A stretch of 24,969 nt of DNA from Promethearchaeota archaeon (GCA_048941285.1 JBHLNS010000045.1:1-24969); one strand, 5' to 3'. Numbered from the stretch's first letter, positions 7,385 through 16,456 are shown. Made by a program: numbers and translations. Notes: generated from the sequence alone by a model not told the origin.

Positions 7385-8674
7385 TTGAATGAAGTGAAGA
7401 TTATTACTGAGACTAAAAGCACAGACGAATCAGAAGAACTTAGTGATGACATCAATTCTTACCTCGAAAAAGTTTATGAACCTAATATAAGAAAGTTATT
7501 GTATAGATGTTACCAATGTGTTCGTTGTAGTGGTGTCTGTCAACTGAGCAAAGTTCAGAGCTTTGAACCCAGTAGAATAATACAAATGATATTAGAGGGT
7601 TTTGAGAATAAAGTTATTGAAAGTGGAATTTTATGGGATTGCCTTACCTGTAATGCTTGTCTTCAAAATTGTCCTGAGGGGATTAATTTTGCCGATATTG
7701 TTAGAATGGCAAAATATAAAATGCGAATTTTACACAAACAAAATCCCGACGATTTTGTTGCCCATAAGGGTGTTTATACAACCATTTCTGAAATAATGAG
7801 TGAACCTAATATAAAGCCAGATCGATCTCTTGATTGGGTTCCTAAAGATTGTAAGATTTCAGATAAAGGGGAACTTATGTATTATGTAGGGTGTATACCA
7901 TTTTTTAATTTTGAATTTGAAAATTCAGATTCTATTGCAGAAAGTACCTTAAAAATCCTGTGTCAGATTGAAAAGGAGCCAATAGTTGTTCTTAAAGATG
8001 AAATTTGCTGCGGTCATGATTTATATTGGGGTCAGGGAAAGCTTGAAGCTTTTATTAATTTAGCAAAGAAAAATATCAAAAGAATTGAAGAAACAGGGGT
8101 CAAAACTATAATTACTGCGTGTGCAGAATGTTATAGAACATTGAAAGTAGACTATCAAGATCTATTTGATGATTTTAATCAAAAATTTGTTGTAAAACAC
8201 TTAATTGAATATATTTATGATAATTGGAAACAAGGAAAAATAGAATTTAAGAATCCAAATCAAACAGAACAAAAAATTCCATTTACATATCACGATCCAT
8301 GTCGTTTAAGTAGATTTTTACCTAAAGACAGTAATATTATAGAAAATGTTCGTGAGATATTTTCGCATTTAAAAGAAATAGGATATAAATTTACTGAAAT
8401 GGCTCATAATAAAACTGATGCTTTATGTTGTGGAGTGAGCTCTTGGATGAACTGCAACGATCGTTCGAAAGCTTTACGATATAAAAGACTCTTAGAAGCA
8501 AAAGATGCTGGAGAAATAATGGTTACCTCTTGCCCTAAGTGCAAAATGCATTTGACCTGCTTACAAAGTGATTATGAGGATATATCATCAATTGAAATTG
8601 TAGATTTTTCCGAATTCCTAGTAAATTTCATAAATATTATAGATCCTAATGATAAGATGAGGGATAAAAAATAA
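7385..8674 (+). CDS. hdrD: HdrD-like Fe-S oxidoreductase (HdrC-type 2x[4Fe-4S] plus two CCG domains)
   Basis: CYQCVRCSGVC and CLTCNACLQNCP; YVGC..EICCG..TACAECY and YHDPCRL..LCCG..TSCPKC. TTG start is uncertain; stop overlaps the next ATG (TAATG, 8672-8676). Confidence 0.9.
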   Translation: MNEVKIITETKSTDESEELSDDINSYLEKVYEPNIRKLLYRCYQCVRCSGVCQLSKVQSFEPSRIIQMILEGFENKVIESGILWDCLTCNACLQNCPEGINFADIVRMAKYKMRILHKQNPDDFVAHKGVYTTISEIMSEPNIKPDRSLDWVPKDCKISDKGELMYYVGCIPFFNFEFENSDSIAESTLKILCQIEKEPIVVLKDEICCGHDLYWGQGKLEAFINLAKKNIKRIEETGVKTIITACAECYRTLKVDYQDLFDDFNQKFVVKHLIEYIYDNWKQGKIEFKNPNQTEQKIPFTYHDPCRLSRFLPKDSNIIENVREIFSHLKEIGYKFTEMAHNKTDALCCGVSSWMNCNDRSKALRYKRLLEAKDAGEIMVTSCPKCKMHLTCLQSDYEDISSIEIVDFSEFLVNFINIIDPNDKMRDKK

Positions 8675-11600
8675 TGGAAGGTTCAGTGCTAGTTGTTGGT
8701 GGAGGTATAGCAGGTATTCAAATCTCTCTCGACCTTACGGAATTAGGATTTAAAGTATATTTAGTAGAAAAATCGCCCTCCATAGGAGGGAGAATGGCTC
8801 AATTGGATAAGACTTTTCCAACTTTGGATTGCTCTTTATGTATATTAGCTCCAAAGATGGTTGAAGTATTTCGTAATCCTAATGTTGAATTAATGACATA
8901 TCACGAGGTTCTGAAAATTGATGGCAAGCCTGGTGATTTTACAGCAAAAATTTTGAAAAAACCTCGATATATTGATGAGGCAAAATGTAAAGGTTGTGGG
9001 GAGTGTAGTAATAAATGCCCTAAGATAATGGCTCCAAATCCTTTTGAGATGAATATTGGCAAAAGAAAATCAGTATATATTCCTTTTCCTCAAGCTGTGC
9101 CTCCCATTTACTTAATAGATTCAGAAATGTGTCTCTATTTAACAAAAGGTGTATGTCAAATATGCAAGAAAGCTTGTCCTGCGGAGGCTATAGATTTTGA
9201 ACAGAAACCACAAGAATTTGAAATAAAAGTTGGAGCAGTTGTAGTCGCAACTGGTTTTGAGATGCCTGTTGAACAATTATCCTCAAGATGGGGATATAAA
9301 TTTGAAAATGTAATAAGTGCTCTGGAGTATGAAAGGATCCTATGTGCTTCTGGACCATTTGGTGGCCACGTTAAACGTTTAAGTGATGAAAAAGAACCTG
9401 AAGTAATAGCTTTTGTTCAGTGTGCAGGTTCTAGAGATCTTCATGAAAATGTTCCTTTCTGCTCAAGTGTTTGTTGTACTTATACGGCGAAACAAGCAAT
9501 AATTACCCAAGAACATTCGGATAAATCAGAATGTTATGTATTTCGTCATGATATTCGTGCGTATGGTAAAAATTTTTATGAATTCACGCAAAGAGCCCAA
9601 GCAGAATATGGTGTAAAATATTTTCAATCCAAAATAAGTACTATTGAAGAAGATCCCGAAACTAATGATTTAATCATACATTATGAGGATTTAAAGACTG
9701 GTGAATTCGAAGATTTTCGTGCTAACCTGGTTGTTTTAGCATCACCCTTAGTCCCGTCAAAAGGAGTTAAAGAATTAGCAAACTCTTTAGGAATTGAATT
9801 AGATAAATACAACTTTTTCCAAGAAAAATCTTATTTTGATAAATTGAAGTCTTCTAGAGATGGAGTTTACCTATGCGGCTTTTGTCAAGGACCCATGGAT
9901 ATCCCCGAAACTGTAGCTGATGCTAGTGGAGTAGCTGCCCAAATTGCTGATTTATTAAATTCTGTTAAATTTTCTCAAATGAAAGAAAAAATTTTTGACG
10001 TACCAGAAAAAGAAGTTAAAATCACAGATGAACCAAGAATAGGTGTAATGGTTTGCCATTGCGGAATTAATATTGCTAATTATGTAGATGTCCCGAGAGT
10101 TGTAGAATATGTTAAAAAATTGCCGTATGTAGTTGTATGTGAAGCGAATTTATATTCTTGTTCCTCTGACTCTCAAATAAGGATTAAAGAATTAATTGAT
10201 GAATATAACTTAAATCGGTTTATTGTAGCCTCTTGTACACCTCGAACTCATGAATCGTTATTTCAGGAAACTTGTCAAGAAGGTGGTTTAAACAAGTATC
10301 TTTTTGAACTTGTAAATATTAGAGATCAGTGTTCATGGGTTCACATGAGTGAAAAGAAGGCTGCCACTGAAAAGGCTATAGATTTAATCAGAATGCATGT
10401 CGCTAAATCAAAATTACTAAAACCTCAAAAAGAGGATAAAATAGACATTACGCATACTGCATTAGTTATCGGAGGGGGCGTGTCTGGTATGACAGCAGCT
10501 CTGAATATTGCTAATCAAGGATTTAAAACAATTCTCGTAGAAAAAGAAAAAGAATTGGGTGGAAATCTAAAATATCTAAACGTTTTATATCCAGTTCATA
10601 AAAATGCTTCAGAATTATTAGTTGATTTAAAAGAAAAAATAACTAACAATGACAATATTCACGTATTCCTAAACGCTGGAATTAAAAATATAAAAGGGTA
10701 TGTTGGAAATTATGATATAGTAGTAAATGACTTAAATAATAAAGCCCATGATTTTAAAATTGGAACGATAATAGTTGCAACTGGAGGTCAAGAATTAAAA
10801 CCAACTGGTCTTTTTGAATATAATGATAACACTAAAAATGTAATAACTCAATTAGAGTTAGAACAGAAATTAAATAGTAAAGATAATTCATGGCTAGAAA
10901 AAATTAAAAGAGTAACAGTAATTCTATGTGTAAATGCTAGACAAAATGAAGGTATAACATATTGTTCAAATATCTGTTGCGCAACTTCATTAAAAAATGT
11001 TAGAATCTTAAAAGAATTGAAACCTGAGTTAGAGATTGTGGTGATTTACAGAGATTTACAAATGGCAAAGAAAGAGTTTGAGGAGTATTATCGTGAACGG
11101 CGGAAAGATGCGATTTTTCTAAGATATGATTTAGATCAACTTCCAGAAGTAAAAAAGAAAGATGAAAGCCTAGAAAAGTATCAGATAAAAGTTTTTGATA
11201 CTAATTTAAAAGACAACATTGAATTCGAAACGGATTTATTAATACTCTCAACGCCTATGATTCCCGCAGATAACTTGAAGGAATTAGCAATGATGCTAAA
11301 AGTTCCATTAGATAAAAATGGATTTTTCTTAGAAGCACACGTGAAATTAAGACCTTTAGATTTTGCAACAGATGGGATTTTCTTATGCGGCTGTGCTCAA
11401 TGGCCAAAGAATATACAAGATTCAATTGCCCAAGCTAATGGTGCTGCAGGTAGAGCAAGTAGATTTCTCAGTGCAGATAAAATTACTACATCTGGATTGG
11501 TAGCTGAAGTCTCAGAAGAAAAATGTATTGGTTGTGGCAAATGTGAAGATGTTTGTCCTTATAAAGCAATAACGCTTATAGAAATATCTAAAGAGTTTGA

Positions 11601-11781
11601 GGATATTTGTATCAATGTCAAAAAGTCTAACATTAACGCAGCCGTATGTAAGGGATGTGGAACCTGTGCTGCAACATGTCCTGTTGGGGCTATAATGGTA
11701 AAACATTATGATTTTGATCAAATTTCAACTATGATTGATTCTTATTTACTTGAAAAGGAGGAAGTAAAAAACGGATTTTAG
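8674..11781 (+). CDS. hdrA: heterodisulfide reductase subunit A-like polyferredoxin flavoprotein with two FAD modules (paralogue 2)
   Basis: Same motif set and order as 4149-7229 over its whole length; many synonymous differences. Confidence 0.95.
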   Translation: MEGSVLVVGGGIAGIQISLDLTELGFKVYLVEKSPSIGGRMAQLDKTFPTLDCSLCILAPKMVEVFRNPNVELMTYHEVLKIDGKPGDFTAKILKKPRYIDEAKCKGCGECSNKCPKIMAPNPFEMNIGKRKSVYIPFPQAVPPIYLIDSEMCLYLTKGVCQICKKACPAEAIDFEQKPQEFEIKVGAVVVATGFEMPVEQLSSRWGYKFENVISALEYERILCASGPFGGHVKRLSDEKEPEVIAFVQCAGSRDLHENVPFCSSVCCTYTAKQAIITQEHSDKSECYVFRHDIRAYGKNFYEFTQRAQAEYGVKYFQSKISTIEEDPETNDLIIHYEDLKTGEFEDFRANLVVLASPLVPSKGVKELANSLGIELDKYNFFQEKSYFDKLKSSRDGVYLCGFCQGPMDIPETVADASGVAAQIADLLNSVKFSQMKEKIFDVPEKEVKITDEPRIGVMVCHCGINIANYVDVPRVVEYVKKLPYVVVCEANLYSCSSDSQIRIKELIDEYNLNRFIVASCTPRTHESLFQETCQEGGLNKYLFELVNIRDQCSWVHMSEKKAATEKAIDLIRMHVAKSKLLKPQKEDKIDITHTALVIGGGVSGMTAALNIANQGFKTILVEKEKELGGNLKYLNVLYPVHKNASELLVDLKEKITNNDNIHVFLNAGIKNIKGYVGNYDIVVNDLNNKAHDFKIGTIIVATGGQELKPTGLFEYNDNTKNVITQLELEQKLNSKDNSWLEKIKRVTVILCVNARQNEGITYCSNICCATSLKNVRILKELKPELEIVVIYRDLQMAKKEFEEYYRERRKDAIFLRYDLDQLPEVKKKDESLEKYQIKVFDTNLKDNIEFETDLLILSTPMIPADNLKELAMMLKVPLDKNGFFLEAHVKLRPLDFATDGIFLCGCAQWPKNIQDSIAQANGAAGRASRFLSADKITTSGLVAEVSEEKCIGCGKCEDVCPYKAITLIEISKEFEDICINVKKSNINAAVCKGCGTCAATCPVGAIMVKHYDFDQISTMIDSYLLEKEEVKNGF

Positions 11782-11790
11782 GTGATAATC

Positions 11791-12225
11791 ATGTTAAAGA
11801 TGAAAACGAAAAAAAAAAAGGAAGGGTTTGAACCCAATCTTTTAGTTTTTTGTTGTAATTGGTGTAGTTATGCTGGAGCAGATTTAGCTGGTGTTTCTCG
11901 ATTTCAATATCCTCCGAATATTAGAATTATAAGGGTAATGTGTTCTGGACGAGTAGATCCTTCTTTTGTTTTAAAAGCTCTTAAAAATGGTGCTGATGGT
12001 GTCCTTGTAAGTGGATGTCATATTGGTGATTGTCATTATATTACTGGGAATGAATACACTCAGGAGAGATTCGAAAGATTGCATAATATTTTAATTAAAC
12101 AATTAGGAGTAGACCCAAAACGAGTTAGGTTAGAATGGGTAAGTGCCTCTGAAGGAAAGAGATTCGCTGACGTAATTACAGAATTTACTAACCAAATAAA
12201 AGAATTAGGGCCATTCAGGTATTAA
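11791..12225 (+). CDS. mvhD: MvhD/VhuD/FlpD [2Fe-2S] adaptor subunit (all-Cys form)
   Basis: FCCNWCSYAGAD, RVMCSGRVD, GCHIGDCHY, WVSASEG. SD GGTGA at 11781-11785 favours ATG 11791 over GTG 11782. Confidence 0.95.
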   Translation: MLKMKTKKKKEGFEPNLLVFCCNWCSYAGADLAGVSRFQYPPNIRIIRVMCSGRVDPSFVLKALKNGADGVLVSGCHIGDCHYITGNEYTQERFERLHNILIKQLGVDPKRVRLEWVSASEGKRFADVITEFTNQIKELGPFRY

Positions 12226-12743: not shown

Positions 12744-13604
12744 TTAATTACAACAATTATTTTCATCATTATTTGATGGAATATCTACCCACTCAATATT
12801 TTTTTGATCCTGATCAATAGAAATTTTAGAGCTTTGAATATAATCAATATCCAATCTCTTCTCAAAAAGCTTACGAGCTAAAAGTAAGGCTTGATTTATA
12901 TTTATAATAGTACCCTTCTGAGTTGGATTTTGTTTCTCCCACTTATTAAGATTTTTAATTGAAGTAAAAAATAATGTATTGGCACACTGAGATCCTAAAT
13001 ACGTGATTATATTCTTAGGTTCTTGGAAAGCAATTTTCTCATCTTTAATCTCAATTTTTATCCCTTGTCCAGAAACTGGATCTTTTGATAAAACTATGGC
13101 ATCTTGATTATATGTAAATGGAAGCCCCAAAGCATCGATTACGCATGCTGCTTCAATTGGTTTAAGAGTTCTTCCATCTTTTAAGGTCACTTCATGCTCA
13201 TATCCGATTTTAGAGATTCGGGGTATTATTTTTTCATCACCATTTTTTTTTCTATAAATTACACCTATCTTCTCAAGTTTAACCAAGATTTCTTCTAGAT
13301 GTTGAAATGAGAAATTTAAATTCTTTTTAATCTCATTAATTGTTTGAATAATGTCGTATTTTGAATATTGTTCTATAATATAGTTAAAAACTTCTTCTTG
13401 ATCTTGAGTCATCCCAACCTGAGGAAATCCTCTTTTTACAAATTGTCTAATCAATTTTTCTTCAAGTTGTTCATCGTAATTTAATTTTAAAGCTCGTTTA
13501 GTTTCTTCAATACCTGGAAAATAATGGTGTTGTTTATAATTATTTAGAAGATAGATTAAAATTTTCTTTTCTTCTGGTTTTAACTCTGAATCTATACTTT
13601 TCAT
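12744..13604 (-). CDS. tandem winged-helix (LexA-N-like) plus MerB/alkylmercury-lyase-fold protein with C-terminal Cys-Cys
   Basis: C-terminal half: AACVIDAL (MerB CxxD), SKDPVSGQGIKI, QCANTLFF, W..QNP...G.II....A..LAR. N-terminal half: two similar ~55-aa helical units (LKPEEKKILIYLL..FPGIEE.. and MTQDQEEVFNYII..TINEI..LVKLEKIGVIYR). Ends NNCCN. Confidence 0.75.
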   Translation of the reverse strand: MKSIDSELKPEEKKILIYLLNNYKQHHYFPGIEETKRALKLNYDEQLEEKLIRQFVKRGFPQVGMTQDQEEVFNYIIEQYSKYDIIQTINEIKKNLNFSFQHLEEILVKLEKIGVIYRKKNGDEKIIPRISKIGYEHEVTLKDGRTLKPIEAACVIDALGLPFTYNQDAIVLSKDPVSGQGIKIEIKDEKIAFQEPKNIITYLGSQCANTLFFTSIKNLNKWEKQNPTQKGTIININQALLLARKLFEKRLDIDYIQSSKISIDQDQKNIEWVDIPSNNDENNCCN

Positions 13605-13699: not shown

Positions 13700-13714
13700 A
13701 TGCAAAAATTGCAT
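13700..13714. promoter_or_regulatory. palindromic operator ATGCAA-AAA-TTGCAT (copy 1)
   Basis: Identical to 16442-16456; intergenic; lies between the HTH-MerB gene start and a plus-strand TATA box. Confidence 0.7.
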
Positions 13715-13719
13715 TAAAT

Positions 13720-13727
13720 TTTATATA
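13720..13727 (+). promoter_or_regulatory. TATA box TTTATATA facing the candidate ncRNA
   Basis: 5 nt downstream of the palindrome, same geometry as at the moeB promoter; predicts a start near 13750. Confidence 0.55.
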
Positions 13728-13749
13728 TGATATTCTGCCCATAACTATT

Positions 13750-13867
13750 GAAAAGGAAATTAAATTATTCAATCTTTAAAGAGATTCCGCCCTTAATACT
13801 TACTAAAAAGAAGAAAATTCTCTAACCCTAACCCTAACCCATAATAGAATGAATTTATTTCCTTTTC
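13750..13867 (+). ncRNA. candidate ~118-nt structured non-coding RNA (alternative: inverted-repeat-bounded DNA element)
   Basis: 5' arm GAAAAGGAAATTAAATTATTC (13750-13770) pairs with 3' arm GAATGAATTTATTTCCTTTTC (13847-13867): 11 perfect outer bp, 20 bp with two 1-nt bulges. Internal hairpin AATCTT-TAAA-GAGATT (13771-13786). TATA box upstream; TCCTTTTT (13868-13875) downstream. Confidence 0.5.
13822..13840. repeat. tandem hexamer C(TAACCC)3, complement of the TTAGGG telomeric repeat
   Basis: Sequence reads CTAACCCTAACCCTAACCC directly. Confidence 0.9.
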
Positions 13868-13908
13868 TCCTTTTTACCTTGCAAGATTACATTTAATATT
13901 AATAAGTC

Positions 13909-14859
13909 TTATTTCATAGAATAATGGTTGGGTTCTGGATGCACTTTATTTACGAAAGAAAAGTCAAAAATATCGTCTATTTTAATTATTTCTTTTATAT
14001 ACTTTAGCTTATAAAGAGTTTCCACAAATTTCATTGTAGCTTCTATATACTCATCTGAGAGAGAAATACAATATTTTGGAGAAATTTTTAACACTGCCTC
14101 TGCGTAATTTTTGTCAATTAATTCAAAGGTTTTAGATATTTTCTCTGCTGCTATTGATGGTGAATTTCGCAGCAAACTAGATGCCTTCTTATGTGAATCT
14201 AGAAATCTCAGAATTAGTTCTGGTTCAGTTTGAATAAGCTTTTTATGAGCAAATATGCCATAACTAGGGTTATTTGCCCAGAGGTCATCGGCTTTAATAA
14301 TTAGATGAGATTCTAATATTGTTGCTGCAAAAACCACTAAAGCTGGGGTTCCAACACCTGCTTCTAATATACCCTCTTTCATATCATTAGCGATAAATTC
14401 TGCCTGTTCATAATTTTTTACTTCAATTTCACTTATTAAATTGTATTTCTCCAGATAATAATTTAAAATAACATCATGAATAGAACCTCTACTTGGAACT
14501 CCAATAGCTTTTCCTTTAAATTGACAGAAAGTTTTATTTAGGTTATTATCTAATTGCGTTTTTGTTTTATATTGAATCTTACCAACCATAATAGTTCCTT
14601 CAACATGACCTCCCGCAACACATTTAATCGGAACTCCTTGTTCAATGCCAATAATTGCAGGAGGTAATCCCATATATCCAATGTCCAGTTTTCCTTCTTT
14701 AAATGATTTAATCATTGCAGGTCCTGTCCCAAAAAGAATCCAATTTATATCAGTTTTTAAATTTTTTCTGAATTCCTCGCTTTCCATCAACACATAATTA
14801 GTATGATAAGCTGTTGAGAGATGTCCAATTCTTAATTTTTTTTCTCTAATCAGAAACAC
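13909..14859 (-). CDS. NMT1/SsuA/TauA-type substrate-binding-fold protein without signal peptide or membrane anchor
   Basis: LRIGHLST, FGTGPAMI..F..GKLDIGYMGLPPAI, FKGKAIGVPSRGSIHDVIL, PELILRFL motifs. An in-frame TAA (14877-14875) just upstream of the GTG start excludes an N-terminal extension. Confidence 0.85.
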   Translation of the reverse strand: MFLIREKKLRIGHLSTAYHTNYVLMESEEFRKNLKTDINWILFGTGPAMIKSFKEGKLDIGYMGLPPAIIGIEQGVPIKCVAGGHVEGTIMVGKIQYKTKTQLDNNLNKTFCQFKGKAIGVPSRGSIHDVILNYYLEKYNLISEIEVKNYEQAEFIANDMKEGILEAGVGTPALVVFAATILESHLIIKADDLWANNPSYGIFAHKKLIQTEPELILRFLDSHKKASSLLRNSPSIAAEKISKTFELIDKNYAEAVLKISPKYCISLSDEYIEATMKFVETLYKLKYIKEIIKIDDIFDFSFVNKVHPEPNHYSMK

Positions 14860-14994
14860 CTGACTGAACTTAAATTATCCATAATAATTACATTAAATAT
14901 TAAAATTAATAATCCAAATAAATAAATGCTATATTTTTATAAATACTAATATTAAACTATTGTAATTGAAAATATGATATAAAAAGGTTTTAAC

Positions 14995-15282
14995 GTGATA
15001 AATATTAAAGCTTCATTTCTCTCTTTATTAGTGGATATAATTGGAAAGGAAGAAATATCTTTATCTATTAATGAATACTCAACAATTAAAGATATTTTAA
15101 TGAAACTTAGAAAATTATTAGGTAAAAACTTTGAAAAGAATATTTTTAATATTAAAGATAAATTGAATAAATACATCATCTTGGGGTTAAATGGGAAAGA
15201 TATTCGTAAATTTGATGGTTTAGATACTATTATTAAAGATGGTGATGAGCTTTCTTTTTTACCAGCTATTGCTGGAGGATAA
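14995..15282 (+). CDS. MoaD/ThiS/SAMP-family ubiquitin-like sulfur carrier
   Basis: Beta-grasp size (95 aa); LNGKDIR..DGLDT.IKDGDELSFLPAIAGG with a free C-terminal Gly-Gly. Confidence 0.92.
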   Translation: MINIKASFLSLLVDIIGKEEISLSINEYSTIKDILMKLRKLLGKNFEKNIFNIKDKLNKYIILGLNGKDIRKFDGLDTIIKDGDELSFLPAIAGG

Positions 15283-15298
15283 TCATTCTTTTTATCAA

Positions 15299-15315
15299 AA
15301 GCCTCTTTAAGGCTT
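15299..15315. terminator. hairpin between convergent SAMP and tusA genes
   Basis: AAGCCT-CTTTA-AGGCTT, next to a T-tract (15289-15293). Confidence 0.4.
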
Positions 15316-15551
15316 CAAATTCTTCTTAATATTAATTCATAAACCTCTGCTTTCTTATTTTTTTCTCTTATTTCTATTAACTCTGCTAAACTTTGTCGTT
15401 TACAATTTTCAGGAACATTTTTAATTGCAGGGAGAAAGTCTAATTCTACTTCTAATATATCACCTTTATTTAACTCTTCAAGTGCTAATTTAGTATAGAC
15501 AAAAGTCATCGGGCAAACTTGCCCCTTAATATCAATTTTTTTTTTAGTCAT
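15315..15551 (-). CDS. tusA: TusA/SirA-family sulfurtransferase
   Basis: IDIKGQVCPMTFVYTKLALEELNKGDILEVELD; ATG 15551 (MTKKKID) gives the usual ~78-aa size and avoids overlap with the E1 gene. Confidence 0.88.
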   Translation of the reverse strand: MTKKKIDIKGQVCPMTFVYTKLALEELNKGDILEVELDFLPAIKNVPENCKRQSLAELIEIREKNKKAEVYELILRRI

Positions 15552-15574
15552 GCTTATTCGATTTACAGAGTTTT

Positions 15575-16381
15575 CTATTGACAAAAATCCTCAATCCTAT
15601 AATTGTAGGTTTCAACTAAATCTAAAGCAGTTTCTCCGCACGCGAGACAATTTTCATCCCTATAAATGTCGATAAAATTAAATGTATTCCTTAAAAGATC
15701 AACATACAAAATTTTATTTACAATTAAATCTCCCACTTTTAAAATATATTTAATTGCTTCATTTGCTTCTAGACATCCAAGAATTCCCGGAATGAACCCT
15801 ATGACTCCTGCTTGGGAACATGACATTCCTGTTGGTGTATCAATTACATCACCAAAAAGACAACGATAACAAGCAGTTTTATCTTCTGGGACAACAGTTA
15901 TTATCTGACCATGATATCTTAGAACTCCTGCTATAGTAAAGGGTATCTTTAAATAAATACATGCATCATTAACTAACATCTTAGTAGGGAGATTATCGGA
16001 TCCCTCTATTACAAAATTAGAGTCTTTTAAACATTCTTTAACATTAGCAGGAGTAAGTCTTTCAGAAAATATTTCAATTTTGCAATCAGGATTTAGCTTG
16101 TTAAGTTTTTCAATAGCACTCACTGTTTTCTTTCTATTAATATCTTCAGTGGAATGAAGAATCTGACGATGTAAATTAGATATTTCGACAATATCGTAAT
16201 CTATCACTTTTAGATTACCAATTCCCGCAGCGACTAAGTAATATGCTGCTGGTGAACCCAGAGCTCCTAATCCAACTAATGATATTTTTGAATTTAATAA
16301 TTTTTTTTGACCAATACCTCCAATTTCCTTAAGGACAATTTGACGGGAATATCTATTTATCTGTTCTTCTGTTAAATTCAT
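15575..16381 (-). CDS. moeB: MoeB/ThiF/UbaA-family E1-like adenylyltransferase (no rhodanese domain)
   Basis: RYSRQI, GLGALG, DYDIVEISNLHRQ, GSDN, Zn sites CYRC and CLAC, catalytic-loop Cys in SCSQAGV. Confidence 0.93.
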   Translation of the reverse strand: MNLTEEQINRYSRQIVLKEIGGIGQKKLLNSKISLVGLGALGSPAAYYLVAAGIGNLKVIDYDIVEISNLHRQILHSTEDINRKKTVSAIEKLNKLNPDCKIEIFSERLTPANVKECLKDSNFVIEGSDNLPTKMLVNDACIYLKIPFTIAGVLRYHGQIITVVPEDKTACYRCLFGDVIDTPTGMSCSQAGVIGFIPGILGCLEANEAIKYILKVGDLIVNKILYVDLLRNTFNFIDIYRDENCLACGETALDLVETYNYRIEDFCQ

Positions 16382-16441: not shown

Positions 16442-16456
16442 ATGCAAAAATTGCAT
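16442..16456. promoter_or_regulatory. palindromic operator ATGCAA-AAA-TTGCAT (copy 2)
   Basis: Identical to 13700-13714; overlaps the expected BRE position of the E1 promoter. Confidence 0.7.

Follow-up and report, generated by a model that had tools for sequence, protein, structure and literature searches.

A structurally conserved, multi-copy small RNA family of one Asgard archaeal family, with a paralogue in a sulfur-relay gene cluster

The locus and the RNA gene

The window analysed here is a whole stretch of 24,969 nucleotides from a Promethearchaeota archaeon (GCA_048941285.1, JBHLNS010000045.1:1-24969). The host genome comprises 3.55 Mb in 101 contigs, with 29.7% G+C and 94% completeness. 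Its relatives with a gene for the neighbouring protein are metagenome-assembled genomes that bear the title Promethearchaeota or Promethearchaeia, except that one is labelled Hodarchaeota. The RNA element that is the subject of this work occupies the gap that separates two ORFs of the minus strand, 12744-13604 and 13909-14859, which code for a candidate regulator and a substrate-binding protein, respectively; beyond the latter lie the genes for a ubiquitin-fold sulfur carrier, a sulfurtransferase and an E1-like adenylyltransferase (Table 1). A 75-aa ORF on the minus strand, 14952-15179, is probably a shadow of the MoaD/SAMP-like gene. Elsewhere in the window, the plus strand (8674-12225) carries a gene for an HdrA-like flavoprotein of 1035 aa that contains ferredoxin domains, and an MvhD/FlpD-like gene comes next.

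Because the host is an Asgard archaeon, a stand-alone RNA gene is expected to be preceded, at about 25-30 nt, by a TATA box and to end in a T-run terminator. The earlier note on this DNA had placed a TATA box, a terminal stem, an inner hairpin, a weak hairpin, three CTAACC units and a T-tract on the plus strand of this gap; all of these features were found again at their coordinates by direct reading of the sequence, with the weak hairpin read as 13809-13821. Both ends of the RNA gene are predictions: the TATA spacing sets the 5' end, and the T-run marks the 3' end. The long closing helix P1 joins the two ends of the RNA: its outer part consists of 11 bp of perfect complementarity between 13750-13760 (GAAAAGGAAAT) and 13857-13867, and pairing continues, with bulges, up to 13770/13847.

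Table 1 Features of the window and additional copies of the RNA family.
Feature	Position	Strand	Details and basis
Winged-helix HTH plus MerB-like (weakly SaoL-like) protein, candidate regulator	12744..13604	-	Pfam, NCBIfam; divergent from the RNA
Putative operator	13700..13714	no strand	Inverted repeat ATGCAA-AAA-TTGCAT, with the TATA box 5 nt downstream; kept 5' of orthologous RNA genes
Archaeal-type TATA box of the RNA gene	13720..13727	+	TTTATATA; begins 31 nt ahead of the first paired base
Small RNA gene, ~125 nt	13750..13875	+	R1, 118 bits; R2, 95.7 bits; orthologues 72-77% identical
P1, 5' strand of the long closing helix	13750..13770	+	Fold; family-wide, 15/15 closing-helix pairs (helices 1-3) with compensatory changes
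P2 hairpin	13771..13786	+	Minimum-energy fold
Motif A, unpaired C-rich segment	13785..13797	+	UUCCGCCCUUAAU in the window copy, UUCGCCCUCUAUU in most paralogues; nearly invariant in alignments
Weak 4-bp hairpin at the position of family helix P3	13809..13821	+	Minimum-energy fold
Start of motif B	13816..13823	+	AAUUCUCU in the window copy, AAUUCUCUCCCU in most paralogues; interrupted by the repeat in the window copy
CTAACC x3 plus C, microsatellite in the variable linker	13822..13840	+	Unique in the genome
P1, 3' strand	13847..13867	+	Sequence, fold, family covariation
T5 run, archaeal-type terminator signal	13871..13875	+	CUCC then T5 directly after the stem (13867-13875)
SsuA/NMT1-like substrate-binding protein	13909..14859	-	Pfam, NCBIfam; convergent with the RNA
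MoaD/SAMP/ThiS-like ubiquitin-fold sulfur carrier	14995..15282	+	GTG start; Pfam ThiS, 3.2e-11; NCBIfam moaD_arch, 55.4 bits (cutoff 49.5)
TusA/YedF-like sulfurtransferase	15315..15584	-	Pfam, NCBIfam
ThiF/MoeB/UbaA-like E1 adenylyltransferase	15575..16381	-	Pfam, NCBIfam
Second 15-mer inverted repeat	16442..16456	no strand	Located 4-5 nt from the TATA-like box that precedes the E1 gene on the minus strand
Family copy in this genome (L079)	G000 C30:76104-76280		177 nt; ~50-nt insert at the P2 position
Family copy in this genome (L080)	G000 C14:29103-29205		103 nt; without P3
Tandem copies, L053	117-242 and 1501-1618
Tandem copies, L072	132-257 and 417-544
Tandem copies, L116	3001-3126 and 3306-3432
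Tandem copies, L112 and L113			Two copies each

Several lines of evidence bear on the strand. Folding of both strands, a check suggested by the earlier note, sets the plus strand apart: its folding energy is -19.5 kcal/mol (z = -3.1, with one of 200 shuffles as good), and the minus strand shows no exceptional fold (z = -0.8, with 38 of 200 as good). Among the copies of the RNA family described below, 75 of 106 have a TATA-like octamer that starts between -40 and -26 from the first paired base in the sense orientation, versus 27 of 104 in the antisense orientation; the best TATA-like match most often falls at -32 to -29. A run of at least four Ts lies no more than 16 nt past P1 in 78 of 105 copies in the sense orientation versus 14 of 106 in the antisense orientation; for runs of at least five Ts, the counts are 49 and 9. 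The G-U pairs of the RNA fall on the plus strand which, as with the TATA and T-run bias, points to this strand as the one that would be transcribed into the RNA.

The proposal that this gap harbors a small RNA is thus strongly supported by the conserved orthologues, the family-wide covariance model, the compensatory changes and the sense-specific promoter and terminator signals. We consider it highly probable that the segment 13750-13875 on the plus strand is a real structured RNA gene that belongs to a conserved family. The archaeal TATA box at 13720 would drive transcription of this stand-alone gene of about 125 nt, and the T-run directly behind the long closing helix would terminate it.

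Range, covariation and common design of the RNA family

A DNA search of 41 genomes (this genome, G000, and 40 relatives) yielded matches at E <= 0.001 in 15, with long matches, of 188-257 nt and 72-77% identity, confined to five (G011, G015, G016, G014 and G007). In these five genomes, all from the same genus, the element lies between the same two genes, with conservation extending over the inverted repeat, TATA box and RNA body. Four further orthologues were found later (G092, G069, G090 and G083). A covariance model built from six orthologues, R1, has matches in 28 of the 135 genomes from the same taxonomic family, which represent 4 of its 13 genera. The broader model R2, built from the 32 matches, detects the RNA in 114 of the 131 genomes of this Asgard (Promethearchaeota) family, denoted f1, and in none of the 19 genomes from the other three families of the same order. 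At the scale of the phylum, R2 matches 22 of 25 f1 genomes and none of 125 genomes from 26 other families. Within f1, genus g12 lacks R2 matches (0 of 5 and 0 of 3 genomes); in two g12 genomes, the gene that normally precedes the RNA is directly trailed by another coding gene.

The RNA-bearing genomes carry from one to seven copies, in some cases in tandem, a few hundred bases apart (Table 1). This genome carries three, only one of which is seen by blastn; the two copies outside the window are diverged paralogues that score 56 and 51 bits with R2. No known RNA class was detected at this locus: Rfam 15 gave no match in the whole window at gathering thresholds and, at E up to 10, a single chance-level match for the window copy (E = 9.9) and chance-level matches only for two paralogues, and ARAGORN found no tRNA. 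Exact matches to the 19-nt core were not found in viral contigs. Full-text literature searches returned no description of the family, although catalogues of non-coding RNAs in supplements could list it, and term look-ups in two 2026 preprints on prokaryotic non-coding elements likewise gave nothing on this RNA. Taken together, these searches delineate a structurally conserved, multi-copy family of small RNAs that is confined to one Asgard archaeal family and was apparently undescribed before.

The cross-genome comparison that the earlier note had called for showed that the stem is kept across the family, with compensatory changes. We aligned 106 copies, namely, the earlier loci and 60 of the more than 260 R2 matches in f1. 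In this alignment, 23 of the 26 model pairs are changed on both sides, and 86.2% of the cells are standard pairs versus 69.4% in shuffles (none of 500 reaches the observed value) and at most 56.2% in a control with slid partners; for the first 32 copies, two-sided changes were seen in 21 of the 26 pairs, with 91.1% paired, both sets of counts coming from model-fitted alignments that are biased towards the structure of the model. Independently of the model, MAFFT and RNAalifold applied to 25 copies recovered P1 and P3, with compensatory changes in 9 of 23 pairs, seven of these in inner P1. P2 is the weakest helix across the family, with 71.6% of the cells paired and mostly one-sided changes. 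P3, which is only a short hairpin in the window copy, is a covarying helix of 6-9 bp in the paralogues.

The family members share a common design in which the long P1 that joins the ends encloses, in this order, an optional P2 or a larger insert, the nearly invariant unpaired C-rich motif A, P3, the likewise almost invariant pyrimidine motif B and a variable, mostly U-rich linker, with a U-rich tail following the 3' strand of P1. Motif A is unpaired in all variants. In the window copy, the CTAACC repeat starts within motif B and takes the place of the linker. Motifs A and B, located on either side of P3, are near-mirror pyrimidine tracts, CCCUCU and UCUCCC. The length of the G-run in P1 tracks that of the C-run in motif B, with equal runs of two or three in 68 of 106 copies; this correlation was discounted as evidence because the pattern follows the subfamilies. 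No pseudoknot is evident by eye, and the folding tools employed here do not predict pseudoknots.

Gene neighbourhoods and the shared putative operator

The copies of the RNA are found in several distinct genomic neighbourhoods. A 'primary' locus with a conserved gene order accounts for 31 of the 106 copies (for example, L092, L096, L104 and L142): an Eco57I-like gene, a gene for a Ras-family small GTPase and one for a 267-aa, weakly RNase Z-like MBL-fold protein are followed by the RNA and by convergent genes for MFS and EamA transporters. Five other copies adjoin a gene for a beta-CASP-type MBL protein. In the sulfur-relay neighbourhood represented by the window, the HTH-MerB-like gene is located about 145 nt upstream of the RNA, on the opposite strand, for 7 of 32 copies (6 in the clustering of the 106 copies), and, at 12 loci representing three genera, an SsuA-like gene converges on the RNA with a spacing of 9-49 nt. 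At L053, two RNA copies flank an NcsA-like tRNA 2-thiolation gene. Other paralogues have different neighbours and different upstream motifs. Upstream of the copies at L054, L057, L061, L065 and L072, a TGTTTGTTGCGATAACACGG-like motif is present in place of the ATGCAA inverted repeat, which, judging from sequence, suggests a different regulator.

The exact 15-mer that forms the putative operator occurs three times in the genome: two occurrences are intergenic, both in the window, and an ORF on another contig contains the third. Across the genus, the 15-mer has 36 exact matches in 28 of 54 genomes, versus none for the reversed control; several of these matches immediately precede an RNA copy or share a contig with one at a distance of no more than about 6 kb. 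In this genome, no RNA copy follows the second of the inverted repeats (16442), even in a search with filters off; three other genomes have the repeat located between an RNA copy and the E1 gene. Because the same 15-bp repeat adjoins both TATA boxes, it seems likely that one factor co-regulates the RNA and the E1 gene; under this scenario, a single transcription factor would control both promoters. From the shared putative operator, we judge it probable, if well short of certain, that the window RNA is co-regulated with the sulfur-relay cluster. The linkage of the RNA to this cluster could, instead of shared function, reflect inherited synteny.

Function and competing explanations

As the best overall explanation, we favor a gene for a trans-acting regulatory sRNA, with the window copy being the paralogue that resides in the sulfur-relay cluster, and consider this explanation more likely than not. 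The RNA would act in trans as a regulator, through the unpaired motifs A and B, which may pair with purine-rich sites in mRNAs, such as ribosome-binding sites, or else hold a protein. The genome does use Shine-Dalgarno sequences: upstream of starts, pieces of AGGAGGTGAT show a 5-12-fold enrichment, and the 3' end of 16S rRNA is seen. (The assembly contains hardly any rRNA genes: of 16S, it has no more than the final ~60 nt, at the end of contig C34, and the Rfam SSU and LSU models match nothing in the assembly and only fragments in three relatives.) Motif A pairs at or below -9 kcal/mol with the start regions of 7.0% of 800 genes, versus 3.8 +/- 0.9% for 40 shuffles and 2.0% in upstream control windows; by mean pairing, 4 of 40 shuffles are as good. 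Motif B gains nothing at start regions over composition-matched shuffles (37 of 40 at least as good), and the repeat segment falls below its shuffles (40 of 40). Among the local genes, RNAduplex identified no strong target (the best-ranked, at the 2.6th percentile, is a candidate start of the SsuA-like gene), and genome-wide, exact 11-13-mer complements of the motifs amount to little beyond the RNA genes themselves. Of the more conservative readings offered in the earlier note, a C-rich anti-Shine-Dalgarno or protein-binding sRNA tentatively stands as the best functional guess; at starts, the enrichment of motif A is weak and that of motif B absent. Base pairing in trans, as the specific mechanism, we propose tentatively and at somewhat less than even chances.

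The mixed enrichment at start regions and the lack of a standout local target make a protein-binding role a serious rival, even if a distinctly less probable one. Under this alternative, the RNA is a protein-bound scaffold or a part of a lineage-specific RNP, with motifs A and B serving as the protein platform and the U-rich linker and tail as a site for an Sm-like protein. The near-invariance of these motifs across genera, while the helices covary freely, is compatible with such a role and can be explained by protein binding or a tertiary motif just as readily as by a seed. The presence of at least one copy in 114 of 131 family genomes, the U-rich linker beside a helix in most paralogues, and the location of the primary-locus copies directly downstream of the weakly RNase Z-like MBL-fold gene, together with the five copies beside the beta-CASP-type gene, point in the same direction. 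However, the adjacency to MBL-fold genes may be inherited synteny, and genus g12 has the MBL-fold gene but no RNA there. Moreover, the promoters of the paralogues differ and are apparently regulated, which better suits regulators than a housekeeping RNP, and the window copy has no U-rich linker.

A more far-reaching possibility is that the family represents a functional class of structured RNAs not seen before and restricted to a single Asgard lineage. It would then be an RNP or sensor RNA, with differently wired paralogues in separate regulons and the window copy as the RNA arm of the ubiquitin-like SAMP/UbaA sulfur relay; a purine-rich strand would be clamped by the two mirror-like pyrimidine motifs on either side of P3. 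This is a speculative proposal that we consider unlikely. If true, the window RNA might couple tRNA thiolation or sulfur supply to gene expression.

Still less probable is a role in cis, as an antisense RNA or a bidirectional terminator for the convergent SsuA-like gene, the 3' UTR of which would enter the RNA gene. The close convergence of the two genes at the 12 loci is in line with this possibility, and the first minus-strand T-run past the SsuA-like stop codon, at ~13805-13822, is located inside the RNA gene, so that the transcripts would overlap. But copies of the same subfamily also occur on the far side of the cluster, in divergent orientation to the E1 gene, the neighbours of most family members are unrelated, and a simple antisense RNA requires neither a conserved structure nor invariant unpaired motifs. 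Only for this subfamily is a cis-antisense effect on the convergent gene conceivable.

A riboswitch-like leader that regulates a downstream gene on the same strand is very improbable. Some copies do lie 100-450 nt upstream of same-strand genes, those for NcsA-like, enoyl-CoA hydratase, ThrRS editing domain and beta-CASP proteins. However, the window copy is not followed by any plus-strand gene before 14995, with the convergent gene intervening, the 31 primary-locus copies are mostly trailed by convergent genes, and across the 106 copies the downstream genes are heterogeneous and often convergent; furthermore, the T-runs come directly after P1.

The CTAACC repeat had raised the prospect, explicitly speculative in the earlier note, of a telomerase-like or other reverse transcriptase template RNA. 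The resemblance to the telomerase RNAs of ciliates and vertebrates is limited to one strain and consists of the closing helix combined with a C-rich repeat that looks like a template. The array, which would be expected to be conserved alongside the stem, is absent from all nine orthologues examined, the five with long matches and the four found later, and hence is not conserved even within the genus; all nine carry in its place an unrelated pyrimidine-rich sequence, which in the five long-match orthologues is five bases shorter. A contig from another study (254 nt, depth 2.6, seven other differences) has a 6-nt deletion at 13820 that leaves two units, and a second outside contig (327 nt, three differences) retains three, a strain difference that, coming from single low-depth contigs, is weak evidence. 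This variation in the number of units fits slippage, the origin that the earlier note had allowed for. Perfect hexamer trimers are rare in the genome, nine in all, and a search of both strands of the 3.55-Mb assembly found the 13-mer of the repeat only within the element itself, with zero occurrences on the reverse strand. The recommended search for reverse transcriptases and telomeric arrays in the genome yielded neither: there are no TTAGGG arrays in the assembly, which consists of ordinary prokaryotic contigs, and no matches to RVT_1 (PF00078) in this 94% complete genome, whereas control genomes were detected. Because the repeat is not conserved, its units vary, and there are neither arrays nor RVT_1, the telomerase reading is rejected as having a negligible probability. 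We read the array as a recent, strain-level slippage expansion in the variable linker, without a role as a template.

A MITE or another non-autonomous mobile element, a reading suggested by the ~20 bp terminal inverted repeat, is similarly dismissed because blastn of the element against its own genome returns only itself (the next match is 35 nt long, E = 0.007); the other two family copies are diverged paralogues, the position is syntenic across species, and the helix arms covary instead of being copied.

Returning to the preferred explanation, a trans-acting regulatory sRNA, the closest parallels come from bacteria and from other archaea. The bacterial 'sibling' sRNAs of the RsaE/RoxS type contain unpaired C-rich motifs. 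The Asgard RNAs resemble them in being small and stand-alone, in having conserved unpaired C-rich motifs, in the placement of paralogues with the same motifs under different promoters, and in the terminator-like helix with a U tail; they differ in the archaeal host, the TATA-box promoter, the closing helix that joins the 5' and 3' ends, and the lack of any relation by sequence or Rfam. Archaeal regulatory sRNAs are known from Methanosarcina, Haloferax and Sulfolobus. With these, the family shares an intergenic gene with its own promoter and a U-tract terminator, and presumed action in trans, but not homology; unlike them, the Asgard family covaries strongly, is near-universal in one family, and is present in 1-7 copies per genome.

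Three other RNA classes were considered and rejected. Y RNAs, which associate with Ro60, are similar in size (~100-130 nt), in the pairing of the ends in a long bulged helix, in the pyrimidine-rich internal loop and in the U tail, but the genome contains no match to the Ro60 domain (TROVE, PF05731), and there is no Rfam Y_RNA match. C/D-box sRNAs fall in a similar size range, and the best Rfam alignments of one paralogue are to C/D snoRNAs, with insignificant E-values of 3.8 and 8.6; however, strings resembling the C and D boxes are present in some paralogues only, misplaced relative to the closing helix, and are not conserved across 30 distinct copies from the primary locus. The element has no match to 5S rRNA either; a separate full-length 5S candidate, the only one in the assembly, is located at C87:2722-2840 (30.3 bits, cutoff 38).

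Asgard archaea are the closest known relatives of eukaryotes, and full-text literature searches turned up no paper on a conserved structured small RNA in these organisms. The family newly defined here is supported by covariation, near-universal in one Asgard family, and equipped with a promoter and a terminator, and its paralogues carry different regulatory sites, with one of them linked to a cluster for a ubiquitin-like sulfur carrier. The analysis removes a tempting 'archaeal telomerase RNA' lead and, with the putative operator, the candidate regulators and the invariant motifs, provides handles for the study of RNA-based regulation in Asgard archaea.
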